Part shown: positions 15,754 to 43,290 of the stretch, piece after piece
How positions within the stretch are numbered: the stretch's first letter is position 1
How the letters are laid out: each line of letters begins with the position of its first letter
Assembly (NCBI GenBank): GCA_045561235.1
Contig: JBJKYB010000001.1
Coordinates: 10,566 to 74,565, forward strand
Length of the DNA stretch: 64,000 bases
Direction of reading: 5' to 3'
From: Gammaproteobacteria bacterium
GTDB lineage: Bacteria > Pseudomonadota > Gammaproteobacteria > Poriferisulfidales > GCA-002705445
The notes under the pieces: model-generated
Databases searched by the model: none
Told to the model about the DNA's origin: nothing
The model's input: the letters and a program-made list of their open reading frames with translations, nothing else
Program-made: the position numbers and the translations under genes

Positions 15754-15756
15754 ACT

Positions 15757-16875: not shown

Positions 16876-16917
16876 ATACTAAATAATTACAACAAGAAGT
16901 TATCTAGGAAGTTATTT

Positions 16918-16937
16918 ACTGTGCCAAAACTGTGCCA
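16918..16937 (+). repeat. Tandem 9-bp direct repeat, candidate integrase arm-type site
   Basis: ACTGTGCCA-AA-ACTGTGCCA, same motif and orientation as 15856-15876. Confidence 0.6.
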
Positions 16938-17055
16938 CTTGGGTTTCTTTATTGTGATTTATTTACTGCTCGTTAGATGATACAAGCGCAAGGTAATGAG
17001 CGAAAACTAACAACGAATAAGTTACAATGAGATAAGGTCAAGTGGTCTGCCTTTA

Positions 17056-17100
17056 TCTGAAAAACAAGGGGTCGGCAGTTCGATTCTGCCTCTGGCCACT
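17056..17100 (+). repeat. att-like copy of tRNA-Phe 3' half (exact)
   Basis: TCTGAAAAACAAGGGGTCGGCAGTTCGATTCTGCCTCTGGCCACT identical to 15787-15831. Confidence 0.97.
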
Positions 17101-20348: not shown

Positions 20349-20453
20349 TTTATTTTTATTTAAATAAATTATCCTTTTGAAATATATTTTTTGAGGATAT
20401 AGGTTATAATTTTCAAAGCGGCAAAACGGGGGAGCAGAAAGGCTTCCTTGAGC

Positions 20454-22115: not shown

Positions 22116-22121
22116 CATTTA

Positions 22122-22817: not shown

Positions 22818-22879
22818 AATAAAAATGAAGATTAATACTTACAAATATTTAATTACAAAATCTATAGTTTAAAAAAATC

Positions 22880-27850: not shown

Positions 27851-27857
27851 CTTCATA

Positions 27858-28742
27858 ATGCTAAAAATTATATTTAATATATTTAAAAAAATTTACAAGT
27901 TTATTGGTTTTAACAAATTTGCTTTGCTTAATTACTATTCAGTTTTTTATTTTTTAAATTACAAAAAAAATAAAAACGAATTAAAAATAAAAAGAATCAA
28001 CTTCAATAAATTAGATAGACAAAAAATTGATTATTTTAAAAATAAATACTCAAATGAAAGCTGTGTAATTGTTGGGAATGGACCCTCGTTGAATAAAACT
28101 GATATGTCTAAATTACACAACATAAAAACTTTTGGAGTAAACAGCATTTTTTTAATGTCAGAAAAAAATTCTTTTAAGCCGAGTTTTTATATGGTTGAGG
28201 ATAGGTTAGTTATGAAACAAAATTTAAAAGAAATAAATGAATACGATATTGAATACAAATTTTTTCCTCATTTTTATAAAAAAGAAGGATTATACAAAAA
28301 CTCTCTTTTTTTTAATATGGACTCACGTTTTTATCGTGATGAATATAATATCTTAAAAAATACAAATATTAAATTTTCTGATAATTTTGCAAAAGTTGCT
28401 TACGCAGGTCAAACGGTAACATACTTAAATATGCAGTTAGCTTATTTTATGGGATTTAAAAATATTTATTTAATAGGAGTTGACTTTGATTATGTTTTGC
28501 CAAAAGATGTTATAAAAAAAGGGAAAGTATGGGAATCCCATGGTGATGATCCGAATCATTTTGACCCTAGATATTTTGGGAAAGGCATAGAGTCAAATGA
28601 TCCCCAATTACACAAAACAATAATTGCTTACAGAAAAGCTAGAGAGTTTCTTGAAAAAAATAATGTAAAAATAGTTAATTTAACAAAAGGTGGAAAACTA
28701 GAAGTTTTTGAACGCGGAATCTATGATGAAGTTTTTAACTAA
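27858..28742 (+). CDS. DUF115/Maf-like, sialyltransferase-like protein
   Basis: IVGNGPSLN, FGVN, QLAYFMGFKNIYLIGVDFDY, NHFDPRYFG; start moved to ATG 27858. Confidence 0.75.
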   Translation: MLKIIFNIFKKIYKFIGFNKFALLNYYSVFYFLNYKKNKNELKIKRINFNKLDRQKIDYFKNKYSNESCVIVGNGPSLNKTDMSKLHNIKTFGVNSIFLMSEKNSFKPSFYMVEDRLVMKQNLKEINEYDIEYKFFPHFYKKEGLYKNSLFFNMDSRFYRDEYNILKNTNIKFSDNFAKVAYAGQTVTYLNMQLAYFMGFKNIYLIGVDFDYVLPKDVIKKGKVWESHGDDPNHFDPRYFGKGIESNDPQLHKTIIAYRKAREFLEKNNVKIVNLTKGGKLEVFERGIYDEVFN

Positions 28743-28744
28743 AT

Positions 28745-29728
28745 TTATTTAAGTTTTGAAATTTTATTAAGTACATCTGTCCAGTCGCTAAATTTAATTG
28801 CCTTATCGTCAATATATGCGACAGCCCTTGGTTTTTCAGCTGTTACTTTAGAGATTAAATGAGACAAATTATTTTTCTCAAGCCATTCCCAAATCAACTG
28901 CGTGCCAGACTTACCGTCTATAAAACCTCTATCATGACGTGCTTTAGCTGTATAAACGATGACTGTATACTTTTTTGCAATCTCTTCAAGCGCTTCCTTT
29001 GCACCATCTACTACATCGTCATAAATTGTTCCATCGTGATAGCCTTTTGAGTTTTTATGTATAACCCCATCAAAATCTATCGCAATATTTACGTGCTCAT
29101 CAGGATATGAGTATTTTCTTTCCTTTGAGGCACCAGCTTGTCTATTTAATTGTTCCAAATCCTTTGGTTTGTTTTTGAAAATTGGAGGGGTAGCTTTTCC
29201 TGAACCATGTGTTAATTGGTAAGTTAAAAGAAGAGCAAGAACTTCAGCAGTATGGTAAAACTCAACCCCTTGAATTACTTCAGTCAAGTTACTTAAGTTT
29301 GAATTTGAGGGGTACGCCGTTATTAATCCGATTTGCATTCCTTCTAACTCTGCATACCCAAATGCATTTATGATATCTGTTGATGTACCTGAAGATGATA
29401 TTCCTAAGACTAGCGATTTGTCTTTTTGTTCTTTATTATATGAAACTGTTCGTTGTTGAAGCCAGTGAACAAGCCAATCATCAAAACTAGTATCATTTAT
29501 TAAGGATGTTGCAACGATAGCACTTCCAGGAGCTTGAGCATTTTTAGTACCATTTGAAAGCCTGGAAATATCAACAGATGCATGATCAGCTACAGCTAAG
29601 TTTCCGCCGTGTCCAATAATAAAAATATCATCGCAGTAATTAAATTTTTCTTGTAGTTCTTGCCACTCTTTAGAATCGGTTACTTCATTGAAAACATTAC
29701 CAATATTTTCAAAATTTAGTTTGTCCAT
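28745..29728 (-). CDS. SIS (GmhA-like) sugar isomerase domain fused to HAD phosphatase
   Basis: N-terminal IIGHGGNLAVADH...GISSSG; C-terminal IAIDFDGVIH...KP...YIDDKA. Confidence 0.75.
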   Translation of the reverse strand: MDKLNFENIGNVFNEVTDSKEWQELQEKFNYCDDIFIIGHGGNLAVADHASVDISRLSNGTKNAQAPGSAIVATSLINDTSFDDWLVHWLQQRTVSYNKEQKDKSLVLGISSSGTSTDIINAFGYAELEGMQIGLITAYPSNSNLSNLTEVIQGVEFYHTAEVLALLLTYQLTHGSGKATPPIFKNKPKDLEQLNRQAGASKERKYSYPDEHVNIAIDFDGVIHKNSKGYHDGTIYDDVVDGAKEALEEIAKKYTVIVYTAKARHDRGFIDGKSGTQLIWEWLEKNNLSHLISKVTAEKPRAVAYIDDKAIKFSDWTDVLNKISKLK

Positions 29729-29779
29729 GTAATGATTTTAATGATTTATATTTATATAGATAAACTCTAATTTATTTTT

Positions 29780-30472
29780 TTAATAAGAAATGAGGCCAGA
29801 GATTAGATTGTTTTTATATAAAGTTTCTGCAATTGTAAATTCATCAACAGTATTAATGTCTATAGACTGAAAGCTGTCAAGCTCAAAAAAACTTGGTTTA
29901 TGACCAATCAAAGCTTTAAGCTCTCTCATGCTATTCTTTTCAATGATTGAAATTCCATAATTAAGCATTTTTATCTTAGGCAAATCTTGGCTATTAGGGA
30001 CATTGTCAAGTCTATAGTTTAAAGGCTTTCCATCCAACCACAGGTGCCCAATTACATCATTAGTAGATGTAAGGCTATCATTTGTATTTAACATGAATTT
30101 TTCAATCGCATCATCATGTATTTTAGAGCTTATAAATGGAGAGCAAACAGGAGTTAAAAATATAAAATCAGTGTCTGTTGTTTCAGCAATATGTCCATGA
30201 AATTCGGAATTTGTTGCTTCACTGCTTGCAAAGTAATCATCTCTTAATTTTGTTTTTAAACCGTATTGTTTACCAATCTTAAGCATTTTTTCACTGTCGC
30301 TATTTATAATAATTTCATCGATGAGCTTACAATTTTTTAAAACTTTAATTTTTAACTCAAGTAGATTTGTGTCTGCAAATGGTCGTATATTTTTATCAGG
30401 TACTCTTTGAGACCCTTTTCTTACAGCAATTACTGCTGTCAGCTTCCCCTTTTTTTTATAGCTGTCCACCAT
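29780..30472 (-). CDS. CMP-nonulosonate/acylneuraminate cytidylyltransferase (NeuA family)
   Basis: AVIAVRKGSQRVPDKN, INSD, SPF, SQDL, SIDINT. Confidence 0.85.
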   Translation of the reverse strand: MVDSYKKKGKLTAVIAVRKGSQRVPDKNIRPFADTNLLELKIKVLKNCKLIDEIIINSDSEKMLKIGKQYGLKTKLRDDYFASSEATNSEFHGHIAETTDTDFIFLTPVCSPFISSKIHDDAIEKFMLNTNDSLTSTNDVIGHLWLDGKPLNYRLDNVPNSQDLPKIKMLNYGISIIEKNSMRELKALIGHKPSFFELDSFQSIDINTVDEFTIAETLYKNNLISGLISY

Positions 30473-31127
30473 TTACATCAATAACTGCACCATTTATATA
30501 ATTCGATAATTCTGAACATAAAAATACAACGGGTCCCACCTGATCTTCAATGCTTGCAAGCCTATTAAGTGGAATATTTTCACTAAGTTTTTCTTGTTCT
30601 TCTTTTGACATTGACTCAAGCAACATCTTTGTTTTCGTTTGGGATGGGCAAACACAATTAACATTAATATTTCTTGGTCCTAGCTCATAAGCTAGCTGTC
30701 TTGTAAAGCCTATGATCCCTGCTTTGGATGATGTGTAATGCAAACCGCTTACCAAGCTTCGATTTCTTCCTGCAATTGACGAAAAATTTACAATTCTTGA
30801 ACCACTTTTCATCAATTTTAAACTTTTTTTTGTTATATAAAAGATAGATGAAAGGTTTGTTGAAATAACATCATTCCACTCTTCAACTGATATATCATCA
30901 ATTTTATTTGTAGAGTTTATTGCAGCAACATTAATTAAAAAATCAACTTTACTTAAGTTTTGAAGAAAACTATCAACTTGTTGGGTATTTCTAATGTCAA
31001 TTCCTTCAGTTCTTGAAATAGAAAATACTTCTGAGCCTAATTCAGAAAATTTTGTTTTAATTCCCTCTCCAATACCACTAGAGCCTCCAACAATTAAAGA
31101 TGTTTTGCCGGTAAAATCAATCCTCAT
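30456..31127 (-). CDS. Short-chain dehydrogenase/reductase
   Basis: GGSSGIG, NFSS, YTSSK, VNGG. Confidence 0.92.
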   Translation of the reverse strand: MRIDFTGKTSLIVGGSSGIGEGIKTKFSELGSEVFSISRTEGIDIRNTQQVDSFLQNLSKVDFLINVAAINSTNKIDDISVEEWNDVISTNLSSIFYITKKSLKLMKSGSRIVNFSSIAGRNRSLVSGLHYTSSKAGIIGFTRQLAYELGPRNINVNCVCPSQTKTKMLLESMSKEEQEKLSENIPLNRLASIEDQVGPVVFLCSELSNYINGAVIDVNGGQL

Positions 31128-31542
31128 ATATATGTTCTACATCTGGCTTTGTTATAGCAAGTCTTGCTGCTGGCTTGTCACCAATAACAGTTATTTGGTG
31201 CCAAGTTTTTTCTTTTACAACGACAATATCTCCAACCGAAACTTCTTGCTGAACACCATCGATGCTCCATATATATGTTCCTTCAAGTATTACCCAACAC
31301 TCATCAGCATCTGGATGATAGTGAAGCCTATTTCCTTCACCGGGATTTTGTTTAATTATAACTCCAGCAAATCTTGAATTATATACGACTCTAGCAGCCC
31401 AAGAGTCATCAAAATTTAATTCGCTTTCAATTTTATAAATACTGTTACTTGTTAAGTTTTCGTAATCATGCCCAGGCTCTAATATAGAAAATTTAATACC
31501 GTCATCTTTTAAAACTTGCTCAACATTGTCATCTGACTTCAT
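31117..31542 (-). CDS. Cupin domain protein
   Basis: HYHPDADECW...GD...WH cupin motifs. Confidence 0.85.
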   Translation of the reverse strand: MKSDDNVEQVLKDDGIKFSILEPGHDYENLTSNSIYKIESELNFDDSWAARVVYNSRFAGVIIKQNPGEGNRLHYHPDADECWVILEGTYIWSIDGVQQEVSVGDIVVVKEKTWHQITVIGDKPAARLAITKPDVEHIYED

Positions 31543-31667
31543 GAGATTATATTAGTAGATAAGTTTAAAATATTTCTTTCTATTTTTATGTTTATAAGTA
31601 TTTATCAAAATTTTTATTGCATTAGATATTACAAAGCAACTTTTATAATTACTACAAGACAAAAATT

Positions 31668-32141
31668 ATGAAAAATTTAAAATATATTGCACTATTAGTA
31701 GCAAGCTCATTAATCTTTTATACCTTTCATCTTTTGACTTGGTCTATATTTAAAAATATTTTCTCATCTCTTTTTTCAACTTTTTTTGTTCAACTTTTTC
31801 TTTATATACTTTTATTGATCTATTATTTAAAAACAGATTTATTTAAAATACTGTCCTTAATTACACCACTAATTCTAGGAAGTACTTTATATTTCATAAC
31901 TGTAATATCGTTTACAGAGAGATCATTAACCGTTGATATGATAACTACTTTGGACTCGAATATTGAAATGTCTTTAGATGAATTTTCTTCAGCAATAGAT
32001 TTTGAGTCTTACCTATCTAAAAGAATTTCTGAACAAGAAATTACAGGAATTGTTAAAAAAGAGTCTGACTATTACTCATTGAGCAATCGAGGTAAATTTG
32101 TGTCCAAAATATATAAATTTTTTATTAAATTTTATAACTAA
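31668..32141 (+). CDS. Hypothetical membrane protein with possible winged-helix C-terminus
   Basis: 3 TM then KRISEQ...GIV...YSLSNRG pattern. Confidence 0.55.
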   Translation: MKNLKYIALLVASSLIFYTFHLLTWSIFKNIFSSLFSTFFVQLFLYILLLIYYLKTDLFKILSLITPLILGSTLYFITVISFTERSLTVDMITTLDSNIEMSLDEFSSAIDFESYLSKRISEQEITGIVKKESDYYSLSNRGKFVSKIYKFFIKFYN

Positions 32142-32760
32142 ATATCGAACTATTGGCTTCCCAAATACTTGAATTTTCTGGGTCTGTCATAACATAATCG
32201 AGCTTAATTTTTTCATTTTGAAGTTTTTTAATAAAGATATTTAAATCTGAATTAATGTCCCATCTTTCTGGTGAAACTAAAACAGTATTCAAATCATCTA
32301 ACATATAATTTTTTATTTTGCTTAAATCTAAATTTTCATAAGTATCAATCCATACCCACTTAACATATTGAGAAAAATTTTTAACAGTTTCTATTGATTC
32401 GAGCTTAGAATATCTAATTGATAAGTATTTGCCAAACTTTTTTTGATTCTTTATTAAAAAAGGCATTTCGCAATCTAAAAGAAAGAATTTTTCACTATAA
32501 CTTTGTAAAAGATTAATTACTCTTTCCTCGATGCCAGCTTCTTTTATATTTGCAATCAAAAGCCTTCCTTCGCAAAGTTTAATAAAATCATCTAAAAAGT
32601 TAAGCTCGTCATTAGCTCCAACAGGGTCATGGCTTAATACAAGATCACCATTGTTACTTCTTACATCAAACTCAACGCCATAATTTGGATTAATTTCAGA
32701 CAAATATCTAGTATCATTTACTTTATGAATAATTATGTTGCTCAAACCTTCTTTTGTCAT
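32125..32760 (-). CDS. PI-PLC/glycerophosphodiester phosphodiesterase-like protein
   Basis: IIIHKVN, GVEFDVR, LVLSHDP, NIKE, WVWID, LVSPE. Confidence 0.7.
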   Translation of the reverse strand: MTKEGLSNIIIHKVNDTRYLSEINPNYGVEFDVRSNNGDLVLSHDPVGANDELNFLDDFIKLCEGRLLIANIKEAGIEERVINLLQSYSEKFFLLDCEMPFLIKNQKKFGKYLSIRYSKLESIETVKNFSQYVKWVWIDTYENLDLSKIKNYMLDDLNTVLVSPERWDINSDLNIFIKKLQNEKIKLDYVMTDPENSSIWEANSSIFSYKI

Positions 32761-32767
32761 TAATGAT

Positions 32768-33457
32768 ATGTTAAACCAAGTAAAACAAAGAGTCTATTTA
32801 TCAAACAAATCACTTAAAGAAAGTGATTTGGTTATTCAAAGCTTTGGAAATGTAAGCGAAAGATTTGAAGATAAGTTGGTCATAAAGCCATCAGGAATAA
32901 ATCTATTCTCTTGCAATGGAGAAGACATGTCAGTTGTTGATATAGAAACTGGTAAAAATTTATCTGAACTAAACCCATCTGTAGACGAGCCAACTCATAG
33001 GATTATGTACAATGCCTTTCCTGAAATCAATAGTGTAGTACATACCCATTCTTTATACGCTACCTCATTTGCACAGGCTAAAATTTCAATTAAAAACTTT
33101 GGTACTACTCATTCTGATTTTACAAAACATACAATACCCTGTACTAAGACAATTTCTGAAGAGTTTACAAAAAAAAATTATGAAGAAAATACAGGTATTT
33201 TAATTGTTGATACCTTAAAAAAACTTAATATAAGCCCTCTTGAGATTCCGGGAATACTTGTAGCTAATCATGGCGTATTTTCGTGGGCAGAAGATATTGA
33301 AACTGCAGTTAGGAACGCAGAAGCAATTGAGTACATTGCTCATTTATCTTTTAACACGTTAATAATTGAACCAAACATAAATATTATCGAACCTTATATA
33401 TCAGAATTACATCATAATAGAAAACATGGAGACAACTCCTATTATGGTCAAAACTAG
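32768..33457 (+). CDS. araD: L-ribulose-5-phosphate 4-epimerase (class II aldolase fold)
   Basis: GNVS, IKPSG, PSVDEPTH, VVHTHS, GTTHSD, LVANHG, RKHG..YYGQ; start moved to ATG 32768. Confidence 0.88.
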   Translation: MLNQVKQRVYLSNKSLKESDLVIQSFGNVSERFEDKLVIKPSGINLFSCNGEDMSVVDIETGKNLSELNPSVDEPTHRIMYNAFPEINSVVHTHSLYATSFAQAKISIKNFGTTHSDFTKHTIPCTKTISEEFTKKNYEENTGILIVDTLKKLNISPLEIPGILVANHGVFSWAEDIETAVRNAEAIEYIAHLSFNTLIIEPNINIIEPYISELHHNRKHGDNSYYGQN

Positions 33458-34493
33458 TGTTGCAGGTACCTTTAAAAAGGTTGTTGTTAAAAATAGATAT
33501 CTAATAACCTATATTTTTTTTGGAGCATTAAGCCTACTTATTGAAATATCATTAAGAATTTTCTTAAATCAACTCTTAAATTTTGAGTATATAAATATTT
33601 ATGCTGTTATTTTTGGAATTTTGTTTTCTGCGTATGCGAATTTGAAATTTAATTTCAATGTACCGAGAAAAAAATATCTTCGCTCTGTGACTTATTTTTT
33701 TTTAGTATCAATTTCGTCATACCTATCTCAATTATTTTTTGTTGATCAAATTCCAAATCTTCTTCCTGAAAATGAATATTTGTCACGAATTCTTGTTTCT
33801 GGAATCTTTTTTATCTTTTTTTATTTTGTTCATTTAAATTTTACTTTTTCAAAAATAGTAAAAATTGGATATGCTGTACATCCAAAAAGTGATATGAATT
33901 TAGGTAAGGATGAAGATACTGCAATTGATTACTCTGATTTTATTCATATAGATCTAATTGATGAAAGTTACAATATTGATAATATTTGTAATGACATTCT
34001 TCTAATAAATTCGCTGATTTCAAAACTGAAAACTAAAGAAATTCAAATTCACATTATGTCTAAAAATCCTGGGCAGTATTTAAATCAAATTTCTTTGGAA
34101 TACGTGGATGTTTTTATTCACTATGAAGATTTAGCAAGTGTTGCTGAAGAAATATATATCGGTAAAAATAATTTTGGAGTAGTTTTAAACGATCCAAAAA
34201 TAGACAGCTCAGAATTAAAAACAATAGTAAATAAATTTAAAAAAATTATGATACTTTGTATTGATAAGCCAGGTTTTTCTGGACAAAAGTTTAATGAAGA
34301 ATATTTTGAATTATTGGACAAGCTCTATCAAATAAAACTTCAGGATACTGAAATTACAGTTGATGGAGGAATTAATAATTTAAATGTTAAAAACTTTTCA
34401 GTTGAAAAAATTGTATCCCAAAGCTATTTATCAAATGGCAATAATCCAATAGAAAAAATTATTAATTTAAAAGATTCTAATAAGTATGGTTAG
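33444..34493 (+). CDS. GtrA-like flippase fused to ribulose-phosphate 3-epimerase domain
   Basis: N-terminal 4 TM with YIFFG...N.KFNF...FTF; C-terminal HIDLID, HIM, PGFSGQKF, VDGGIN. Confidence 0.75.
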   Translation: MVKTSVAGTFKKVVVKNRYLITYIFFGALSLLIEISLRIFLNQLLNFEYINIYAVIFGILFSAYANLKFNFNVPRKKYLRSVTYFFLVSISSYLSQLFFVDQIPNLLPENEYLSRILVSGIFFIFFYFVHLNFTFSKIVKIGYAVHPKSDMNLGKDEDTAIDYSDFIHIDLIDESYNIDNICNDILLINSLISKLKTKEIQIHIMSKNPGQYLNQISLEYVDVFIHYEDLASVAEEIYIGKNNFGVVLNDPKIDSSELKTIVNKFKKIMILCIDKPGFSGQKFNEEYFELLDKLYQIKLQDTEITVDGGINNLNVKNFSVEKIVSQSYLSNGNNPIEKIINLKDSNKYG

Positions 34494-34496
34494 GCC

Positions 34497-35903
34497 ATGA
34501 GAAAAGATTATATTGAAAGCTTGCTAAGTGGAGTATCAATAATACCGAGTGTTCTTTCAGTAAATCTAGTTGGAAGTTATTTTGAAAAACAACTAGAAGA
34601 TATTTCCGACATAGACTTTGTAATTGTTGTAAAAAAACTTGATAGAGAAATTTATGATTACATTCTAAATTATTTCAAAAAATTTGATCATAAGAAATTT
34701 TTAGGAAATTATGAAATTCAAATCAATTCTTCATTTGGGCCACTGAAAATTTATGATGATAAATTAATAATTCTTCACATAATGATTTATGACATAGATG
34801 GGCATGTAGAGCATGTAATAAATAGCCCCTTTACTTGTTTCGACTGGGAAAGAACAGAAAATTTTAAATTAAACAAATTGAATAAACTTTTTCCAGTTGG
34901 AAGATTAATGTTAAATGATTTTTTAAATGCAAGAAGAGGAGTTGTTGATTATAAAAATGATATTAAAAAAAATCAATTATCAATTAGAGAATACAGTTTT
35001 GAAAATCAATCAAATTATGCAGTTTCTAAGAAATATATTGAACTTGATTCAATTCATTTGACGGAATATACATATCATATAGTTAAAAATTTGCTAAACA
35101 ATTATGTCAAATTTTTATTAAATATAAATGAATTAGAAAAAATAGATGATGAGAATTACTCCAAGCATTTAGGATTGACTTATACAAAATATAAAGAAAA
35201 AATTTATGAGATTAAAAATAGAAAAGACACAAGAAGTCCATCAACACAAAACGATGTAACTTGGGTCAGTGAATTTTTAGATGAATTTTATAGGAAGACT
35301 GAGTTTATTTATCAAGACTCTACTAAATTAATATTTATACGGCACGCCAAAACTAAATCAAATAATTTACCAATATTTTTTGGAACTAAGAATAATTCAG
35401 AAATTATAAATAAAGATAAGGTAAAAAGTAAGTACGAGAAATATACCTGTTATACTTCTCCTTCAATTAGGGCAAAACAAACTGTGTCTAAGTACGGATT
35501 TGATAACTTTACGGAATCAGAGCTACTTTCTGAAATAGATTACGGTAAGGCTGATGGCATGTTGTTTGACGAATTTAAAGAAAATTACAGTGAAATTATT
35601 AGAAAATGGTCTGAAAAAGAAGATCCTAGGTTTCCAGAAGGTGAAAACAACTATGATGTTTCATTGAGAGTCGAAAAATTTTTAAATTCCACTAAATTTA
35701 GCGATTCATTTATTGTTACACATCAAGTATTTCTCCGTTGCCTTTTTGGAAAATTATTTAATATACCCATACACCTGTGGTATTTAATCAACATCCCTCA
35801 CAACACACCTCTCGAAGTAATTAAAATAAACCATACCTATTATCCAAATATTTCAAGAAATATGTATAAAGTAATGTTTAAGAATTTTATACATCAGGAG
35901 TAA
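34497..35903 (+). CDS. Pol-beta-like nucleotidyltransferase domain fused to histidine phosphatase
   Basis: N-terminal VGS...SDIDFV; C-terminal FIRHA, SPSIRAKQT, EIDYG, GE, VTHQ. Confidence 0.72.
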   Translation: MRKDYIESLLSGVSIIPSVLSVNLVGSYFEKQLEDISDIDFVIVVKKLDREIYDYILNYFKKFDHKKFLGNYEIQINSSFGPLKIYDDKLIILHIMIYDIDGHVEHVINSPFTCFDWERTENFKLNKLNKLFPVGRLMLNDFLNARRGVVDYKNDIKKNQLSIREYSFENQSNYAVSKKYIELDSIHLTEYTYHIVKNLLNNYVKFLLNINELEKIDDENYSKHLGLTYTKYKEKIYEIKNRKDTRSPSTQNDVTWVSEFLDEFYRKTEFIYQDSTKLIFIRHAKTKSNNLPIFFGTKNNSEIINKDKVKSKYEKYTCYTSPSIRAKQTVSKYGFDNFTESELLSEIDYGKADGMLFDEFKENYSEIIRKWSEKEDPRFPEGENNYDVSLRVEKFLNSTKFSDSFIVTHQVFLRCLFGKLFNIPIHLWYLINIPHNTPLEVIKINHTYYPNISRNMYKVMFKNFIHQE

Positions 35904-35905
35904 AT

Positions 35906-36490
35906 ATGAAACAAAAATTTGCAATAGTTATTGAACCAAGTAAAGAATTAAGTAAAGAAATTTCTGAAATAAAACAAAGCTTCAAAGATTATTCAATTAA
36001 TGATTATATCGATCACCCTAATCACTTGACATTACTACACGGATATTTTGAAGAGAATGACTTGATTAAGGTTTTAGAAAATTTTATATTTAAAGAGATA
36101 GAAATTTCTACGAATAAAATCGAGTGTTTTGAAAATGATTTACTTACCGATTCTAAGACCCTGTTTCTTTCAATTCAGCCACAAAAAGAGCTTATTGATT
36201 TACAACTTAGATTAATTGAAATATTAAAAGAGTACATTGACAATAATGATTTAGAATCTTTATTTTTACCTGAAACTAATTATGGCAAAAATTTAAACAT
36301 TTATAAATATCCATATGTAGGCTCTGATTGGATTCCTCATTTTACGATATGTAGTTTAGAAAATATTGATAGTACAGAATATAAAAAAACGATAAATAAA
36401 CAAATTACTAAAACTTTTAAAGTAAATAAAATCATCATTTTTAAAGTAAATAATTCCGAGCATCTAAAAATAGCGCAAATTTCATCATGA
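35906..36490 (+). CDS. 2H phosphoesterase (2'-5' RNA ligase/cyclic phosphodiesterase fold)
   Basis: Two HxT motifs: HLTL and PHFTI. Confidence 0.8.
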   Translation: MKQKFAIVIEPSKELSKEISEIKQSFKDYSINDYIDHPNHLTLLHGYFEENDLIKVLENFIFKEIEISTNKIECFENDLLTDSKTLFLSIQPQKELIDLQLRLIEILKEYIDNNDLESLFLPETNYGKNLNIYKYPYVGSDWIPHFTICSLENIDSTEYKKTINKQITKTFKVNKIIIFKVNNSEHLKIAQISS

Positions 36491-37212
36491 ATACAAATGT
36501 ATTTTTAATGAGTGGTCGAGGTCAGCGCTTTAAAAATAGTAGCTATGATGTACCAAAACAATTTCTTAAGATAAAAAATAGTAAATATATTATTGATGAA
36601 ATAATACAAAATAGTCCCACTGCTGATGAAACTATATTTGTAATTAATGACGAATTAAATAATTATGATATTTATAAAGAGTGGATATCTAGTTTGAAGT
36701 TTAAATTTAGAATACACAACGTAGGCACATTAACTGAAGGTCAAGCCTCTTCTTTATACTCTATAAAAGACATAGTCAATAAGTCTTCAAGTTTATTTGT
36801 ATCTCCGTGTGATACTGTCATTTATAGCAAAAAGGTAAAAAATATATTTTCAACCTCAGCTGAACATGCAGTTTTCACGGTAAACCCAAATAATTATCAT
36901 ATTAAAAACAGCTCTCAATTTGGATGGGTTGAAAACACTTCACAGAACATAAAAATTTATTGTAAGGAAATGCCAAGTAATTTACTGTTGAGTAATGTAA
37001 TTTTAGGATTTTTTTATTATAAAAATTTTTCTGTTTTTGAAAAAGGTTATTCTCAAGTAGTGAAACAAAATACAAAAGTAAACAATGAATACTATTTAGA
37101 TACAGTTATTGAATCTTTGTTGAACAAGGAAAATAAATTTGAAGAGATAATTGTAAAAAAATATTTATCATTTGGCACTCCAAAAGAATACGAAAAAAAT
37201 AAAAATGTTTAA
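36487..37212 (+). CDS. Sugar-phosphate nucleotidyltransferase (NTP transferase family)
   Basis: MSGRGQRF...PKQFL, TEGQA, CD, NEYY, FGTPKE. Confidence 0.8.
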   Translation: MNTNVFLMSGRGQRFKNSSYDVPKQFLKIKNSKYIIDEIIQNSPTADETIFVINDELNNYDIYKEWISSLKFKFRIHNVGTLTEGQASSLYSIKDIVNKSSSLFVSPCDTVIYSKKVKNIFSTSAEHAVFTVNPNNYHIKNSSQFGWVENTSQNIKIYCKEMPSNLLLSNVILGFFYYKNFSVFEKGYSQVVKQNTKVNNEYYLDTVIESLLNKENKFEEIIVKKYLSFGTPKEYEKNKNV

Positions 37213-37900
37213 ACTAACTTTAGTTTTGCCCTGTTATAACGAAGAAGAAAATATTGATACATTATTTAAAAATTTTTATGATTGCATAGAAAATTTAAAT
37301 GATACGTGTATTTTGTTTCTCGATAATGGATCTACTGATAATTCTTTAATTAAAATAAAAGAAAACATTAATAAATACCACATACCAAATTTTAGCTATA
37401 TGTCATTAAAGCAAAATAAAGGTTATGGATATGGTTTAAAAATTGCTTTAAGCAATATTACTACTCCGTATATCGGTATATCTCATGCTGATCTTCAAAT
37501 TCCTGCTGAAGAAACAATTAATATAGCGAAATTATTTTTAGCAGCTGATAAAAATAGTTTGCATATGGGAAAACGTAAAGGAAGAAGCGTGTTAGATAAG
37601 TTTTTTACAAAAGGAATGCTTTTTATTGTTTTCTTATTTACAGGAATTATATTTAAAGATATAAACGCTCAACCAAAATACTTTAAAAATTCAAAAGACT
37701 TTTACTTTGACAATTTTCCAAATGATTTTAATTTTGATTTACATCTTTTATTAAAAATTAAAAAAATGTCAAAATTGATAAATTATTACGAAATAGATTT
37801 CCTTGAGAGAAAAGCAGGTATTGCAAAAGGTGGTGGAAGTGTTAAAGGAAAGATTAAACTAACACTGTCTACTTTAAGATATTTAATTGGAAAAAAATAA
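37205..37900 (+). CDS. GT2 polyprenyl-phosphate glycosyltransferase (GtrB/DPM1-like)
   Basis: LVLPCYNEEEN, DNGSTD, NKGYG, HADLQ; start moved to ATG 37205. Confidence 0.85.
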   Translation: MFKLTLVLPCYNEEENIDTLFKNFYDCIENLNDTCILFLDNGSTDNSLIKIKENINKYHIPNFSYMSLKQNKGYGYGLKIALSNITTPYIGISHADLQIPAEETINIAKLFLAADKNSLHMGKRKGRSVLDKFFTKGMLFIVFLFTGIIFKDINAQPKYFKNSKDFYFDNFPNDFNFDLHLLLKIKKMSKLINYYEIDFLERKAGIAKGGGSVKGKIKLTLSTLRYLIGKK

Positions 37901-39424
37901 TTGATTATGAAAACATCCTTTAAATATTTTTTTTCAACTTTACTTTTTTTTATTTACCTTTTTATCGTTTCTGATGATTATTTTGTTGGTGATCTTAGTC
38001 ACCTTACATTAAATTCTTCATTTAATATATTTAAAGGATATGGTTACACCTACGGAAATGAAAATAACCTAACAACAGCAGTTAAAAATTCTCCTTTAAC
38101 ATCTTTTATTTTTGGGATTGTTTTAAAGGGTATTAGTCAGTTTTTATTATTAGATACAACAACAATTATTCAAATTGTTTCACTATTAATTACTTTATTT
38201 AGTGCACTAAGCATGGTTTTCTTTTATGACACTGTTAAATCGATCTCAACTTTAAATATATCAATTGTTATCACTGCTTTATTTTTTAGTAATCGATATA
38301 TTCTTGAAACTCTTCTAAAAATATCTTCCGAAGCACTTGGATTTTTCTTACTAATTTTTTGGTTTAATAGATTGTACAAGTTTAGCCTAACTAATGAGTA
38401 CCATTATTTTTTTACCGGATTATTGGCTAGCAGCCTATTTTACAGTTCAAGATATCAATTACTCTTTTTACATATCTTTGCAATATTGTTGAGCATGTTT
38501 ATTTGCAAAAAGCATAAATTTTCTTATAAGGTTTTATTTATTCCTACTATGAGTATTTTCGCAAATTTCTATTTTAATTGGATAAGAAGTGGGAGTGTTT
38601 TTGGCCATCCAGCTGGAGTAGAGGGAGACACGTTTAAAGTTCTAATACATGATTTGATAATATTATTAAAGCGCACTTTCTTGATTCCAAACTTACCTTT
38701 CAACAAATTATTAGTTACATTAATTTTGCTGTCTACTTTTTATTATTTGTCGAAATTTGATTTAACAAGATCGACTTTGTTTAGTAAATTATTAATTCCA
38801 AATGTAAGCTTTGAGTTTTTAATATCCTTTACAACAGTGAATATTGCATTATTGTTAATTACTCTAAGAGTAAATAAAGTTGATACACTTTCTTTTAGAT
38901 ACTTTATTTACAATTTATTTTTTATTTTTTTAATCATTTCATATTTGTGTATTAAGAATAAGATTCTTTTTGTTTATATTGGTGCTCTATTGCTTTTCAA
39001 TATTACAACACTAAATCTAAGTTTTGAAAATAGTTTAAAAAGTTGTTATTGCTCAGATTTATCAATTGAGACAATTGAATACATAAATAAAAACCTCAGA
39101 AATGAAAATATTTTAGGCTCTAGATTTTCAAGCCAGATTTACTATTCAGATTTTCAAGGAAAGGTATTTTTACTACCTTTTTATTCTGAATATAACAAAA
39201 GCTATGGAAGATTGTTGCAACTTGACGAAGCCGGCTTTAAAGAATTAATTGCTGAAGAACAAATTAATTATATTGTTTTTTTTGAAGGGAATGATAAAAA
39301 TGATAGTTTCATTGAAAATAATTTATATGGAGATTTTATTGAAAGTATATACAGTAATTCAAGCATCTATGTTGATAATATAATCGACTTAAGTGATGGT
39401 AAAGTTTTAAAACTCAAAAAATAG
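37901..39424 (+). CDS. GT-C-like polytopic membrane glycosyltransferase
   Basis: Acidic GD after first TM, SEA and SRY motifs, RYF, soluble C-terminal domain; directly after GT2. Confidence 0.65.
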   Translation: MIMKTSFKYFFSTLLFFIYLFIVSDDYFVGDLSHLTLNSSFNIFKGYGYTYGNENNLTTAVKNSPLTSFIFGIVLKGISQFLLLDTTTIIQIVSLLITLFSALSMVFFYDTVKSISTLNISIVITALFFSNRYILETLLKISSEALGFFLLIFWFNRLYKFSLTNEYHYFFTGLLASSLFYSSRYQLLFLHIFAILLSMFICKKHKFSYKVLFIPTMSIFANFYFNWIRSGSVFGHPAGVEGDTFKVLIHDLIILLKRTFLIPNLPFNKLLVTLILLSTFYYLSKFDLTRSTLFSKLLIPNVSFEFLISFTTVNIALLLITLRVNKVDTLSFRYFIYNLFFIFLIISYLCIKNKILFVYIGALLLFNITTLNLSFENSLKSCYCSDLSIETIEYINKNLRNENILGSRFSSQIYYSDFQGKVFLLPFYSEYNKSYGRLLQLDEAGFKELIAEEQINYIVFFEGNDKNDSFIENNLYGDFIESIYSNSSIYVDNIIDLSDGKVLKLKK

Positions 39425-39427
39425 TTG

Positions 39428-40297
39428 TTATTTTTTTGGGAATATTCTTACATTTAACAAATAGTAAATTATTTTTTGCGGAAATAAATAAAAAAGATTC
39501 TGAAAATAAGAATTTATATTCACTCCAAAATATTCGTTTACAAAAACTTTCAAGAATATTTTTTTACATTCTCTGGCCAAATTATTTGTCAGATTTAAAA
39601 CAGAAAAAAAATGCACAACTTCATATGTGTTTTCAGTTATTTTTTTATAAATTCTACGATTGTTTTCATTCCAACTGATATTTTGTGAAATATATTTATT
39701 TTTTTTATGATTTGCCATTTTAATTGCATTATAAAATTTTTGATTAGTTGACTTAGAGTTAAATCTTAAATTGTCACTGTGGTCATTAACTTCAATGAAT
39801 TCATTATTTGTATCATTAACATTTGTCATATTTTTTGCACGATTATGAAAGTCTATATCGTCATAACCCCATCCATATATATACTCATTAAATCCATTTA
39901 GTTCTTCAAAAAGTTTTTTGGTGATTAAAAAATTTCCAAATCCGTTATCTTTGTGAGTAAAATTTAAGTAGTTTATTTTTTCAAGATTTATTTTATTTAA
40001 TGCATTGTGTTTTATGGATGTGTCAGCATCAAGTTTTAAAATAAAATCTCCTTTGGCTAAAAATGCTCCAAAATTGTATGCACGAGAAAGCCACCAACTT
40101 TTCTCTCCTTGAACATTAAATATTCGTAATTTGGAGTTGTGTTTAATGAGACCGGTGGGAACAAGATCTTTACTTGACCAATTTATAATTATGTGCTCCT
40201 CTAAGTGTTTTAATTGTTGAGTTGATTTAATTGCTTCAATTAAATCGTCATGTCTGTTCATGGAGCAGGTAATTACAGAAATATTTTTGTTACTCAT
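39428..40297 (-). CDS. GT2/GT7-type glycosyltransferase
   Basis: SVITCSMNR, LSRAYN, LDAD, GFNEYIYGWGYDDIDF. Confidence 0.8.
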   Translation of the reverse strand: MSNKNISVITCSMNRHDDLIEAIKSTQQLKHLEEHIIINWSSKDLVPTGLIKHNSKLRIFNVQGEKSWWLSRAYNFGAFLAKGDFILKLDADTSIKHNALNKINLEKINYLNFTHKDNGFGNFLITKKLFEELNGFNEYIYGWGYDDIDFHNRAKNMTNVNDTNNEFIEVNDHSDNLRFNSKSTNQKFYNAIKMANHKKNKYISQNISWNENNRRIYKKITENTYEVVHFFSVLNLTNNLARECKKIFLKVFVNEYFGVNINSYFQNLFYLFPQKIIYYLLNVRIFPKK

Positions 40298-40332
40298 TTT
40301 GTTATTGATATAGTTGAAAATATGTAATTGCT

Positions 40333-40704
40333 TTATTTAAAAACATATTTTTTATATATTAAAAATCTTAGCAGTGAAGTAAATATTGAACTAAAAACAA
40401 AAGAAATACTATATAAAGATAATGAGTTTTTTAAAAATGTTGATATAAAAAAGTCAAATATTGCAAAAATGAAATTGACGAAAAAGTATTTTTTAAAGTT
40501 ATGAGATTTAGATTTAAATACAAATTTTTTGTGTAGATAATAACCCTGAAGAATAATATAAATTAAAGATGCCCAAAAAATAAATGTATAACTAAATTTT
40601 AAAAGATCAGATAATAAAAAAATTAGTGTAGTACGAGTCAAAAAATTTACTCCAGTAACCAATTGGAACTTTGAAATTTGAAAAATAAATTTTTTTTCTA
40701 TGAT
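40333..40704 (-). CDS. GtrA-family flippase (start uncertain)
   Basis: 4 TM, LHKKFVFK and KKYVFK repeats; frame open upstream of TTG 40662 as IIEKKFIFQISKFQL without ATG/GTG. Confidence 0.7.
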   Translation of the reverse strand: MIEKKFIFQISKFQLVTGVNFLTRTTLIFLLSDLLKFSYTFIFWASLIYIILQGYYLHKKFVFKSKSHNFKKYFFVNFIFAIFDFFISTFLKNSLSLYSISFVFSSIFTSLLRFLIYKKYVFK

Positions 40705-40742
40705 TGTATATTTTAATTATCTAATATTAAATTACAACAGTC

Positions 40743-41639
40743 ATGAAAATAAATATTTGTATACCTGTATTCAATGAAGAGAACAATTTACCAGATGTAA
40801 TTAAAAATTTAGATGATTACTTATCAACGGTAAGTAATAAAGACCTACAATTTAACGTTGTATTTTATGATGACGGCTCAACAGATAATTCATTATCAAT
40901 TTTAAAAAATTCGAAATTTGAAGTTTTATTTGGATTAAATAATAAAGGCTTAGGAAATGCAATTTCTACTCTTTTTAAACACTCTTTAGAAAACGACGTA
41001 GATGGAGTTATTAAACTAGACGGTGACGGACAAATGGATATAAGTGATATTGACTTATTTTTAGATAGATTAATGAGCAAACCTACAGACTTAATTCAAG
41101 GTAACAGGTTTTATAGATCACATAGCTTCACGCCAGGATATTTAAAAAGATTTGGGATGTTATTTTTTAGAATAATTTTCAGAATTATAGGATTAAAAAT
41201 AAAAGATACATCAAACGGGTTTATTTACGTTTCTAAAAAATGGTTAGAAGATTTTAAAATTATCGGGAACTACAATGCTGCACAACAGATTATCTTAGAT
41301 ACAAAGCTTAGAGATTTAACTTATTCTGAAGTGGATGTAAATATTAAAAATAGAGAAGCAGGAAAATCATTCATAGGAATCAAGTACCCATTTAATGTTC
41401 TCAGCTCAATGTTTTTGCTTTTTCTATATAGAAAAACAGTAAAATTCCTTATAATTCCAGGTTTAGTTTTTTTGTTATTTGCATTTTTATTTTTTGTAAA
41501 TGATGTATCTTTGTGGATTAGACAATTGGAACCAAAAGTTATTTCAAATGAAATTACAATTCTTGCATTTTTATTAGGAGTACAGTTTGTTTCACTAGGT
41601 TCGATAATAGAAATTTTAAAAAAACAAAAAATTATTTAA
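40743..41639 (+). CDS. GT2 polyprenyl-phosphate glycosyltransferase with C-terminal TM pair
   Basis: CIPVFNEENN, DDGSTD, DGDGQ, GNRF, two C-terminal TM. Confidence 0.85.
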   Translation: MKINICIPVFNEENNLPDVIKNLDDYLSTVSNKDLQFNVVFYDDGSTDNSLSILKNSKFEVLFGLNNKGLGNAISTLFKHSLENDVDGVIKLDGDGQMDISDIDLFLDRLMSKPTDLIQGNRFYRSHSFTPGYLKRFGMLFFRIIFRIIGLKIKDTSNGFIYVSKKWLEDFKIIGNYNAAQQIILDTKLRDLTYSEVDVNIKNREAGKSFIGIKYPFNVLSSMFLLFLYRKTVKFLIIPGLVFLLFAFLFFVNDVSLWIRQLEPKVISNEITILAFLLGVQFVSLGSIIEILKKQKII

Positions 41640-41691: not shown

Positions 41692-43290
41692 ATGAAAAAA
41701 TTCAAAAAAACTATTTCTGAAGTACTGTATATATCAAAAATAACGGCAGTAAATAGCAAGAAAGTTAGGATATTATTCTCTGTAGTCCTTGCAAATGTAA
41801 ATGTTTTAGCAGACATTTTAATAATTCTTTTTTTTGCAAACATAATAGTCGGCGAAGTAACTTCTAGTGAGTTTTTAAACAATATAGTAGAAAAACTTTA
41901 TTTACTTCCTGTAATAATATTCATTAGATTTATTAACAATTTCATACAGGCTGCAAATATTATAAATCTTCAACTAAATGTAGAATCGAATTTAAAAGAC
42001 CATTTGATAAGAGAAATTTATAAAAAGGGCAATTACTCAATTGCTGATGCGACTTATTTAATTAATACACTCAGTGGCCATATAGGTTATTTTTATGGTG
42101 CTTTAACAAATTTAATTAATAGCTCAATACAGGTAATTGTTTATGCAGCATTTTTGTTTTATACAAATTTCGAAACTATTGGCTTATTTGTACTTGGTGC
42201 AGCTTTGCTCGCGTTACCAACCAGATACTTACTTGTTAGGGGTAGAAAATATATGCATGATTATTGGGTTAGTGGACAACAAGCCCAAAAAGATATTCAG
42301 CGAGTTATCCAAAATATTTTTCTAATAAAAATTTTAAGGACAAGCGAATATGAAATCAAAAATTTTAACAACACTATTGAAAAAGTAGTTAAAGCAAGTG
42401 AAAAGAATCAGAATTTTGCAATAATCAACGCGGCACTTCCAAATTTTGTGACCGCGTTTACCATAGCAATATTGTTAGTTTTTTTTGGTGTACTTAAAAA
42501 TCTAACATTAGAATTTTTAGGAATAACATTAAGACTAGTTCAAACTATTGGAGTTTGGAATAAGTCTTTAAGTCAACTTATAAATTCGCATGTTCATTTA
42601 GAAAAATTTACTCAATTAGAAAATAACAAAGTAATAATTAAAAAAGAATATTTTTCACATATTGAATCGAATGAAGATGCGGTAAGGTTTAACAATATTA
42701 GTTTTAAATATTTTAATTCAGAGGATTATATTTTCGAAAATTTAGACTTATCTATACCTAAAAATAAACATACAGTCATCACTGGTCCTAATGGATCAGG
42801 AAAAAGTACTCTTTTAGGTTTAATCTCACAAGTTTTTTATCCGGAAGATGGAAATATAAATATATCATCCAACAAAATTGGTTATGTAGGAGTAACGCCA
42901 TTAATTTTAGACGATACTTTAAGAGAGAATTTTTTGTATGGAAACACAAAAAATATCAAAGATGATGAATTAATTAATCTTGCAAATGAGTTTGAATTAT
43001 TTGTTGAGAACGAAATTAATTTAGATAAATCAATTTCAAACAGATCTTTGTCAGCAGGACAAATGCAAAAAATAGCTTTTATTCGTGCACTATTAGCTGA
43101 AGTAGAAATTTTACTTTTAGATGAATCAACATCAAACTTAGATATAGATACTAAGCAATTTATTTTCAATATTTTAAATAATAAAAATATTACTATTATT
43201 AATTCAACTCATAATCATGAAGATTTTTCATATGATCACCACATTCGAATAGTTTATAACGGTGAAAAAAGGAAATTAGTTTTTAATTAG
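41692..43290 (+). CDS. ABC transporter, fused permease/ATPase (MsbA/PglK-like glycolipid flippase)
   Basis: TM domain then GPNGSGKST, LSAGQ, LLLDESTSNLD. Confidence 0.85.
   Translation: MKKFKKTISEVLYISKITAVNSKKVRILFSVVLANVNVLADILIILFFANIIVGEVTSSEFLNNIVEKLYLLPVIIFIRFINNFIQAANIINLQLNVESNLKDHLIREIYKKGNYSIADATYLINTLSGHIGYFYGALTNLINSSIQVIVYAAFLFYTNFETIGLFVLGAALLALPTRYLLVRGRKYMHDYWVSGQQAQKDIQRVIQNIFLIKILRTSEYEIKNFNNTIEKVVKASEKNQNFAIINAALPNFVTAFTIAILLVFFGVLKNLTLEFLGITLRLVQTIGVWNKSLSQLINSHVHLEKFTQLENNKVIIKKEYFSHIESNEDAVRFNNISFKYFNSEDYIFENLDLSIPKNKHTVITGPNGSGKSTLLGLISQVFYPEDGNINISSNKIGYVGVTPLILDDTLRENFLYGNTKNIKDDELINLANEFELFVENEINLDKSISNRSLSAGQMQKIAFIRALLAEVEILLLDESTSNLDIDTKQFIFNILNNKNITIINSTHNHEDFSYDHHIRIVYNGEKRKLVFN

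Follow-up and report, generated by a model that had tools for sequence, protein, structure and literature searches.

A candidate Gtr-like glycosylation cassette with its own sugar-activation genes in a gammaproteobacterial glycan island

We analyzed a stretch of 64,000 nucleotides (nt) from a gammaproteobacterial genome (assembly GCA_045561235.1, contig JBJKYB010000001.1, positions 10,566 to 74,565), referred to in the following as the window, and report on a cassette of eight genes at window positions 32125-39424 (Table 1). They encode an AraD-type epimerase, a GtrA::Rpe-like fusion, a fusion of a nucleotidyltransferase domain (NT) to a histidine phosphatase domain (HP), a 2H phosphoesterase, a sugar-phosphate nucleotidylyltransferase (NTPt), a short family 2 glycosyltransferase (GT2a), a large membrane protein and, divergently, a glycerophosphodiester phosphodiesterase-like (GDPD-like) protein. 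The eight genes are packed as an operon; at their junctions, neighbours either overlap, by 32, 4 and 41 nt, or are spaced by 3, 2 and 0 nt. No terminator-like sites were found in 31400-40800, and promoter-like sites were no commoner than in shuffled sequences (73 vs. 69). The original prediction for this DNA had already named the genes as an operon, and the open reading frames (ORFs), their domain and fold calls and the tight junctions agree with it.

Genes and predicted proteins of the cassette

The window proteins were scanned against the Pfam and NCBIfam libraries. For NT::HP, an AlphaFold model was built from 80 homologues (pLDDT 93.8). The closest structural matches of the N-terminal domain were the aminoglycoside O-adenylyltransferases (ANT) ANT(9) (6sxj; Z 10.3, rmsd 4.0, 211 residues) and ANT(3'')(9) (7uy4; Z 10.1), and residues G26, D38, D40 and D99, which make up a G-S ... 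D-x-D motif and a third acidic position, were invariant in the 80 sequences. Language-model look-alikes of the domain carry PF01909. On the predicted structure, NT was confirmed as an ANT-like nucleotidyltransferase of the Pol-beta type, despite Pfam scores below cut-off, and in its model it resembles enzymes that nucleotidylate sugar hydroxyls. The C-terminal half is a branch-1 histidine phosphatase: His_Phos_1 (PF00300) covers residues 279-446 with 70.1 bits, PhoE, PspA, FBPase-2 and CobC are matched at Z 19-21, and R282, H283, R325, E346 and H409, the catalytic R-H-G, R, E and H set, are invariant. The family is large, with >400 full-length relatives in 90% clusters and 150 representatives at E<=1e-30 in a 50% library. 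By tblastn, it was not found in 50,697 phage records, and the sole match in 72,556 plasmid records was to an unrelated histidine phosphatase stretch.

Two epimerase-type proteins precede NT::HP. The AraD-type protein scored 121.9 bits against Aldolase_II, 249.5 bits against its best NCBIfam model, NF006047, short of the cut-off of 257, and 214.3 bits against TIGR00760 (cut-off 389.1). Its residues 12-239 align with all 231 residues of E. coli AraD (1jdi; 176 bits, E 9e-51), with an identity of about 50% over the full length as estimated from the printed alignment. The alignment begins at Met12, and the true start is therefore probably at 32768. We take its metal and acid/base residues to match those of characterised AraD. 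The second protein carries GtrA_DPMS_TM (PF04138) at residues 29-141, with 30.4 bits against a cut-off of 26.1, in agreement with the predicted presence of GtrA, and Ribul_P_3_epim (PF00834) at residues 161-325, with 74.9 bits against a cut-off of 21.1. Against the Rpe equivalog model TIGR01163, the Rpe-like domain reached 69.3 bits, below the cut-off of 212.6. In an alignment of 43 sequences that included the housekeeping Rpe of the same genome, H24, D26, D29, H59, M61, H82, G101, G133 and D163-G164-G165 were invariant columns; H24, D26, H59 and D163 presumably form the metal-binding and catalytic His-Asp-His-Asp set.

The 2H protein matched PF13563 with 38.9 bits (cut-off 27). It has two H-x-T motifs, in which H40 and H145 are invariant and T42 is almost so. 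Its family profile matched YjcG (2d4g) and Pyrococcus PH0099 (1vdx), which we take to be of the LigT type, and, more weakly, the cyclic phosphodiesterase (CPDase) 1fsi (E 0.011). NTPt matched PF00483 with 38.8 bits (cut-off 21.2), and its family profile hit the nucleoside diphosphate (NDP)-sugar pyrophosphorylase 4evw at 3.4e-18, followed by GlmU. With G10, G12, R14, K24, Q86 and D109 invariant, including the G-x-G-x-R ... K signature of sugar-1-phosphate transferases, NTPt is, by its sequence, a sugar-phosphate nucleotidylyltransferase.

The GDPD-like protein has no Pfam or NCBIfam family, neither a signal peptide nor a transmembrane (TM) segment, and its profile gave 0 matches against the PDB at E<=10. 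Its model (pLDDT 92.1) matched glycerophosphodiester phosphodiesterase barrels at the top of a Foldseek search (TMq 0.60-0.69, E ~1e-5), as expected from the predicted PLC/GDPD-like gene at this position. Invariant residues in 48 homologues include H12, E30, D32, R34, H44, K73 and E98, and the H / E-x-D / H set is a candidate for the GDPD catalytic residues, read by pattern rather than by superposition. The protein is thus a candidate metal-dependent phosphodiesterase with a predicted GDPD/PI-PLC-like TIM barrel. Its start codon and that of AraD diverge and lie ~7 bp apart (32760-32768), so both promoters must fall within coding sequence. Elsewhere, the gene lies mostly on the same strand as the rest of the cassette, usually directly after GT2a, and it appears to have been relocated here and in one Actinomarina locus, L017.

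GT2a matched PF00535 with 53.9 bits, ArnC and PgfS being its best NCBIfam models. Among solved structures, it is closest to ArnC, the GT2 domain of TagF, DPMS and GtrB sll0501, and, judged from these relatives, it belongs, as predicted, with the enzymes that put a sugar onto polyprenyl phosphate. It has only one hydrophobic segment; the C-terminal helix pair of GtrB is absent. The gene that follows encodes a 507-aa protein in which seven or more segments are strongly hydrophobic and the C-terminal ~130 aa form a soluble domain. Only 8 homologues were found, in which G28-D29-x-S31-H32 after the first TM segment is invariant. The protein encoded beside the L017 cassette is 42% identical to it. 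Language-model look-alikes (score 0.99) carry PMT or PMT_2. The protein is likely, but unproven, to be a GT-C transferase. A 157-aa protein is encoded just before the cassette, and its sole relative among the loci described below adjoins the GT-C-like gene of L017 (E 2e-32). It is possibly an accessory of the 507-aa protein, and its membership in the system is uncertain. From the alignments, each cassette enzyme appears to retain those invariant residues that an active protein of its fold should have.

Table 1. Genes of the cassette and the preceding small gene, with window coordinates.
Product	Position	Strand	Remarks
157-aa protein, three TM segments	31668..32141	+	No family (Pfam, NCBIfam)
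GDPD/PI-PLC-fold protein, 211 aa, divergent	32125..32760	-	No Pfam family; predicted fold
AraD-type 4-epimerase	32768..33457	+	ORF opens 32735; Aldolase_II
GtrA::Rpe-like fusion	33426..34493	+	GtrA_DPMS_TM + Ribul_P_3_epim
NT::HP (nucleotidyltransferase::histidine-phosphatase)	34497..35903	+	NT residues 1-272, HP 275-468
2H phosphoesterase (cyclic phosphodiesterase / 2'-5' ligase superfamily)	35906..36490	+	PF13563
NTPt (sugar-phosphate nucleotidylyltransferase)	36487..37212	+	PF00483 (NTP_transferase)
GT2a (short polyprenyl-phosphate-type GT2)	37172..37900	+	PF00535; likely ATG start 37202
507-aa multi-TM protein, candidate GT-C	37901..39424	+	No family in any library

Recurrence of the cassette, its fusions and its variants

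One genome per species was scanned for NT::HP with two peptide patterns, which returned 77 loci. Nine of these (L069-L077, Chloroflexota) hold only an unrelated histidine phosphatase and were left out. The remaining 68 NT::HP-bearing loci were searched as six-frame ORFs with the window proteins, and Rpe-like was found in 61, NTPt in 59, GtrA in 58, GDPD-like and GT2a in 51 each, 2H in 50 and AraD in 45; a divergent 2H was present in 8 further loci, mostly planctomycete. Many of the misses are contig ends. When the count was limited to 36 full-context loci, flanked on either side by 6 kb or more, Rpe-like and NTPt were each present in 35, GtrA in 34, 2H in 33 (30 plus 3 divergent), GT2a and GDPD-like in 31 each and AraD in 27. 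The outlier among the 36 (L068) represents a gene fragment. For 44 of the 68 cassettes, a big multi-TM ORF is found no more than 4 kb away; among 24 big membrane proteins scanned with Pfam (23 cassette neighbours and the 507-aa protein), PMT_2 was found in two and GT87 in one, and the rest gave nothing useful.

Seven of the eight genes are therefore found together repeatedly, in DPANN archaea and in no fewer than nine bacterial phyla, and their co-occurrence is far beyond chance. The carriers comprise Pelagibacterales (SAR11) and other Alphaproteobacteria, Actinomarina, Verrucomicrobiota, Lentisphaerota, Planctomycetota, Bacteroidota, Gemmatimonadota, Marinimicrobia, Gracilibacteria and, among the DPANN archaea, Woesearchaeota/Nanoarchaeota. 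The usual order is [AraD]-GtrA::Rpe-NT::HP-2H-NTPt-(free GtrA)-GT2a-GDPD-like, with the free second GtrA in 22 loci.

Among the open frames and database proteins, neighbouring genes are fused in several ways. GtrA::Rpe::NT::HP occurs in DPANN archaea and GtrA::GtrA::Rpe::NT::HP as proteins of ~960-990 aa; Rpe::NT::HP was also seen. The 2H enzyme is fused to NT::HP on either side (NT::HP::2H and 2H::NT::HP) in four Bacteroidota loci, planctomycete locus L045 and database proteins. Fusions that involve NTPt are NT::HP::NTPt (P0096 and P0334) and NTPt::GT2a (L027), the latter arguing that NTPt feeds GT2a. The GDPD-like protein was never fused in this set. Together with the membrane anchoring, the fusions suggest channelling of labile intermediates. 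The recurrence of the set in the 36 full-context loci, with its fusions, upholds the earlier view of the cassette as one functional unit; the condition that had been named as refuting this view, a lack of co-occurrence in other genomes, was checked and did not apply.

It might still be supposed that ordinary pentose metabolism genes have come to lie in a glycan island by chance and share no pathway, since AraD and Rpe are central-metabolism families. This explanation is contradicted by the gene order kept across phyla, the fusions and the membrane-anchored epimerase, and by a host genome that lacks AraA and has a separate housekeeping Rpe, and we find it scarcely credible.

Some cassettes depart from the usual set. 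Four short forms (L013, L018, L037 and L038) have no GT2a, GDPD-like gene or AraD but retain Rpe, NT::HP, 2H and NTPt. A second 2H and a PAP2 membrane protein of ~460-475 aa are additional in L013 and L038, as is a methyltransferase in L037 and L038. These short forms fit a soluble module ending in an NDP-sugar. Locus L004 has an insert (5836-10394) with a free GtrA, a DOT1-like methyltransferase, a DprE1-like FAD oxidase, a class III aminotransferase and an extra CPDase, and L026 has similar insert genes, assigned by clustering. From the insert, it seems that the carried sugar is oxidised and aminated. The sugar series could be switched by whether AraD is present.

Proposed pathway and its alternatives

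We read the cassette as a Gtr-like system for glycosylation outside the cytoplasm, in which a sugar-activation module of its own, not described before, takes a ketose phosphate as its starting material. To this reading we give slightly better than even weight; its overall function we consider quite probably right. GT2a would need an anomeric NDP-sugar, and with the NTPt::GT2a fusion this would mean that other enzymes must turn a terminal ketose phosphate into an anomeric one. In the first of eight proposed steps, the Rpe-like 3-epimerase, with AraD where present, would convert ribulose 5-phosphate or xylulose 5-phosphate to a rarer epimer. The histidine phosphatase would then take off the terminal phosphate, leaving the ketose free to close to a furanose; pentulose 5-phosphates are unable to do so, and the phosphatase should thus act first. 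In step 3, the ANT-like NT would nucleotidylate a hydroxyl of the sugar, most likely the anomeric one. In step 4, the 2H enzyme, aided by the GDPD-like protein or a second 2H, would turn the phosphodiester into a cyclic phosphate and then into the anomeric sugar phosphate. NTPt would make the NDP-sugar (step 5), GT2a would transfer the sugar to polyprenyl phosphate (step 6), GtrA would aid its passage across the membrane (step 7), and the adjoining large membrane protein would place it onto the surface glycan (step 8).

A free ketose is nucleotidylated directly in CMP-Kdo synthesis, to which step 3 may be compared, and the cyclic-phosphate step parallels RNA cleavage chemistry and the action of CPDase on ADP-ribose 1'',2''-cyclic phosphate. 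NDP-furanoses decay to 1,2-cyclic phosphates, according to a passage in PMC5607165, which makes cyclic sugar phosphates plausible species here. Relocation of the phosphate to the anomeric carbon, possibly by way of a nucleotidylated and then cyclic-phosphate intermediate, was part of the original prediction; with an ANT-like NT and a GDPD/PI-PLC-like gene in the set, the idea of such an intermediate is chemically coherent, and the individual steps, relocation included, are still deduced rather than observed. Steps 3 and 4 as written are, in our judgment, more probably wrong than right. The entire sequence, in which dephosphorylation, ANT-like anomeric nucleotidylation, cutting off of the nucleoside via a cyclic phosphate, ring opening and immediate loading of the NDP-ketofuranose would add up to a kinase-free anomeric phosphorylation of a ketofuranose, is a doubtful proposal.

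The same genes could be read as repair functions around a very labile NDP- or NMP-furanose donor, with 2H and the GDPD-like protein salvaging the cyclic phosphate formed by breakdown and the phosphatase clearing dead-end phosphates. The spontaneous decay of UDP-apiose to apiofuranosyl-1,2-cyclic phosphate, described in the same passage (PMC5607165), gives a precedent, and the extra 2H or CPDase copies in some loci, as well as the fusions and membrane anchoring with their hint of unstable intermediates, point the same way. However, this would leave no enzyme for making the first anomeric phosphate. Repair enzymes are also rarely as universal, or as often fused to the core, as the 2H enzyme, with its presence in 33 of 36 full-context loci and its NT::HP::2H fusions. 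We consider a repair role quite unlikely.

A further possibility is that the product is a phosphodiester decoration, comparable to ribitol phosphate on teichoic acids or dystroglycan. NTPt would then make a CDP-5-ketose or the like, in the manner of ISPD, NT would be a phosphotransferase like LicD or fukutin, and GT2a would supply an ordinary lipid-linked hexose. LicD and fukutin-type enzymes have a nucleotidyltransferase fold, NTPt has weak matches to IspD and database relatives with PF01128, and a phosphodiesterase-fold gene belongs to the set; CDP-ribulose occurs as a term in PMC4924997. Yet such a pathway has no role for a phosphomonoesterase or a 2H enzyme, both of which are near-universal, and the best structural matches of NT are hydroxyl-adenylylating ANT enzymes. 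NTPt retains the signature residues of sugar-1-phosphate transferases, and its fusion to GT2a speaks for a product that goes to GT2a. We regard a phosphodiester product as very unlikely.

Returning to the Gtr-like system, the identity of the sugar is less firm than the overall function. L-Ribulose, or any pentulose, as the earlier proposal had it, did not hold up as a firm assignment, because the best solved match of the Rpe-like domain is the D-allulose-6-phosphate 3-epimerase AlsE and because AraD is missing from some cassettes. We keep a ketopentose as a tentative choice, at somewhat less than even weight. The same system might instead handle a ketohexose, with fructose 6-phosphate converted to allulose, tagatose or sorbose 6-phosphate by the 3- and 4-epimerases. 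In that case, the anomeric position would be activated with the 6-phosphate still on, through a 2,6-bisphosphate-like intermediate, and the FBPase-2-like phosphatase would remove the 6-phosphate before NTPt acts. It is established chemistry that a hexulose 6-phosphate, unlike a pentulose 5-phosphate, can close to a furanose while still phosphorylated. The match to AlsE (3ct7, 1.1e-11) is better than that to any Rpe (best 1.8e-8), HP is near fructose-2,6-bisphosphatase (profile E 7e-21, Z 19.8), and the fusion of a transferase to a histidine phosphatase parallels the architecture of PFK-2/FBPase-2. On the other hand, the gap between the AlsE and Rpe matches is small, HP is just as near PhoE, PspA and CobC, and the estimated identity of AraD to the E. 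coli enzyme points to a pentulose 5-phosphate. A ketohexose seems unlikely to us.

Several observations weigh against the proposed system, or against parts of it. The pathway chemistry is deduced from genes, folds and context. A kinase would be a simpler route to an anomeric phosphate, and two nucleotidyl transfers in one pathway are unusual. The N-terminal Pfam nucleotidyltransferase matches of NT are below cut-off (17.2 and 16.9 bits). Eight of the 35 complete cassettes have no AraD, and a hexulose is possible as the sugar in view of the AlsE match. The cassette was not found in a taxon with a known xylulose glycan, in a scan limited to one genome per species and two peptide patterns and therefore no proper test; among its 77 matches there were no enterobacterial loci. 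The GDPD-like gene and GT2a are co-present or co-absent in 34 of the 36 full-context loci, the exceptions being L002 and L051, a pairing that suits a role next to lipid loading no less than a role in the soluble steps. The GDPD-like enzyme may thus act on a lipid-linked phosphodiester and not on a nucleotidylated sugar. A predicted complex of GT2a with the GDPD-like protein scored 0.00, from which no reading is drawn either way.

The last step has its own difficulties. The label GT-C that the 507-aa protein had been given is likely, in view of its many TM segments and PMT/PMT_2 look-alikes, but unproven. It drew no family support: the protein had no Pfam, NCBIfam or PDB match, a profile of its 8 homologues showed no GT-C relation when run against the PDB, and alignment of its profile by hhalign with a PMT_2-bearing neighbour gave a probability of 0.2, which is no usable match.

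Genomic setting and relation to known systems

The host genome is 1.23 Mb in size and 98% complete. AraA is absent from it, a housekeeping Rpe (267 bits) is encoded elsewhere, and the AraD gene is its sole Aldolase_II (class II aldolase-family) gene. A catabolic role for the cassette was rejected on these three grounds, in line with the earlier expectation that catabolism is unlikely. NT::HP was found in none of 60 relatives, of which 14 belong to the same genus, a further 2 to the family, 36 to the order and 8 to the class. This marks the cassette as a strain-specific acquisition within a flexible island. Among public sequencing runs, 18 from the years 2013-2025 contain the 7.3-kb stretch 32125-39424 at full word share; most are recorded as marine metagenomes, and four have no organism label. 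This indicates that the genotype is widespread or repeatedly sampled. Any part of it was present in 20 runs from ten studies, some of which may be its source, and in two metatranscriptome runs the share of its words was 0.07.

The cassette is surrounded by a low-GC glycan island of 47 kb that encodes GT1, GT2, GT8, GT25, Wzy_C, GDP-mannose dehydratase and DegT proteins. A second, separate Gtr-like set adjoins the cassette (39428-41639), with a GT2 (39428-40297) and a free GtrA-family gene (40333-40662, 109 aa) on the minus strand and a divergent GT2 of 298 aa (40743-41639) that has two C-terminal TM segments and PgfS and AglJ as best NCBIfam models; an ABC exporter follows at 41692-43290. Four large family-less multi-TM ORFs (452, 555, 550 and 555 aa) in 18990-24532 and 53516-56484 flank a 231-aa GT2 and a methyltransferase::GT2 fusion, and these regions may be further lipid-linked-donor transferase sets of the same island. 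MptE-like, CTP_transf_3 cytidylyltransferase, SDR and cupin genes are grouped at 27819-31542, a combination that recalls nonulosonic-acid modification loci. Just ahead of the island, at 14101-17099, is a tRNA cluster with Lys, Asp and two Phe-GAA genes, of which the second tRNA-Phe measures 80 nt and has the anticodon at position 40. This cluster may mark an island boundary or integration site.

Strain-variable surface-glycan islands are generally thought to shape recognition by phages and grazers, and the cassette lies in such islands of very abundant marine microbes. A passage in a 2019 review of E. coli O antigens states that no genes for nucleotide-activated precursors were known for ribofuranose or xylulofuranose (PMC7685785), and in a 2024 study of Yersinia O:10 the L-xylulofuranose transferase is, in the passage concerned, a guess only (PMC11380512). 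The ribofuranose route has since been solved, via phosphoribosyl pyrophosphate (PRPP), as described in part of PMC11127046. The ketose half of the furanose question is not solved in the literature that we searched, in which we found no nucleotide-activated (NDP- or CMP-) xylulose or ribulose glycosyl donor. The cassette is a concrete and widely distributed candidate route for ketofuranoses into bacterial glycans. If the proposal is right, the so far missing biosynthesis of ketofuranose residues, such as xylulofuranose, for the surface glycans of prokaryotes would be accounted for, and SAR11, Bacteroidota, Planctomycetota, CPR bacteria and DPANN archaea would be among its users. The cassette also includes a family without a database model, the GDPD-like protein, and a poorly modelled domain, NT. 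That the cassette is common to bacteria and DPANN archaea points to cross-domain transfer of a complete glycan-decoration module.

The searched literature, with subscription journals and some supplements outside its scope, holds no description of the gene set or of the GtrA::Rpe fusion, consistent with the earlier impression that this is not a described pathway. Among the nearest parallels are the GtrA/GtrB/Gtr* systems for O-antigen glucosylation of Shigella and Salmonella, as outlined in part of PMC11127046. They share with the cassette a GT2 that loads undecaprenyl phosphate, a GtrA-family protein and a location in a flexible, strain-specific region, and their large membrane transferase acting outside the cytoplasm may have its counterpart in the 507-aa protein. 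By that outline, UDP-glucose comes from housekeeping metabolism in those systems, whereas an NTP transferase and sugar-modifying enzymes come with the cassette itself. In all, it adds five or six enzymes (two epimerases, NT::HP, 2H, NTPt and the GDPD-like protein), its GtrA is fused to an epimerase, and its GT2 is short and without the C-terminal helix pair of GtrB.

The same source describes, in part, a PRPP-dependent system of Citrobacter youngae, with a polyprenyl phosphoribose synthase, a MATE flippase and a GT136 GT-C, and the mycobacterial decaprenyl-phospho-arabinose pathway (PMC11127046). As far as that account goes, these systems place a pentose-phosphate-derived sugar on polyprenyl phosphate, with a phosphatase step, auxiliary epimerases that diversify the sugar and a GT-C outside, much as is proposed for the cassette, and they have no counterpart of NT, 2H and the GDPD-like enzyme. 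A DprE1-like FAD oxidase is a further likeness in the variant cassettes L004 and L026. A scan of the ORFs of 120 aa or more between 17154 and 63136 gave neither a UbiA-type synthase nor a MATE protein. Instead, the cassette would build its donor with an NTP transferase and a GT2, and epimerise at the sugar-phosphate level with Rpe- and AraD-type enzymes.

In the Arn system (ArnC / ArnE-F / ArnT), which adds 4-amino-4-deoxy-L-arabinose (L-Ara4N) to lipid A, a dedicated cytoplasmic sugar-nucleotide module leads to a polyprenyl-phosphate carrier and a GT-C, as is proposed for the cassette, and ArnC proteins are the closest solved relatives of GT2a. However, Arn starts from UDP-glucuronic acid by oxidative decarboxylation and transamination, and none of those enzymes is in the cassette. 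The routes to CMP-Kdo (KdsD, KdsA, KdsC and KdsB) and ADP-heptose (HldE and GmhB) start from ribulose 5-phosphate or sedoheptulose 7-phosphate and use a dedicated phosphatase and then nucleotidylyl transfer. This logic is shared, but the enzyme families differ, and the cassette has no kinase, two nucleotidyltransferases of unrelated fold and the 2H and GDPD-fold phosphodiesterases. PFK-2/FBPase-2, which gives the top Foldseek matches, likewise has a transfer domain followed by a branch-1 histidine phosphatase, and handles the anomeric phosphate of a ketofuranose. In the cassette protein, the N-terminal domain has a Pol-beta nucleotidyltransferase/ANT fold and not that of a P-loop kinase, and its context is biosynthetic, not regulatory. 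Thus, the lipid-carrier logic is that of the known GtrABC, Arn and PRPP systems, and what is new is the sugar-activation module, none of whose enzymes they share.

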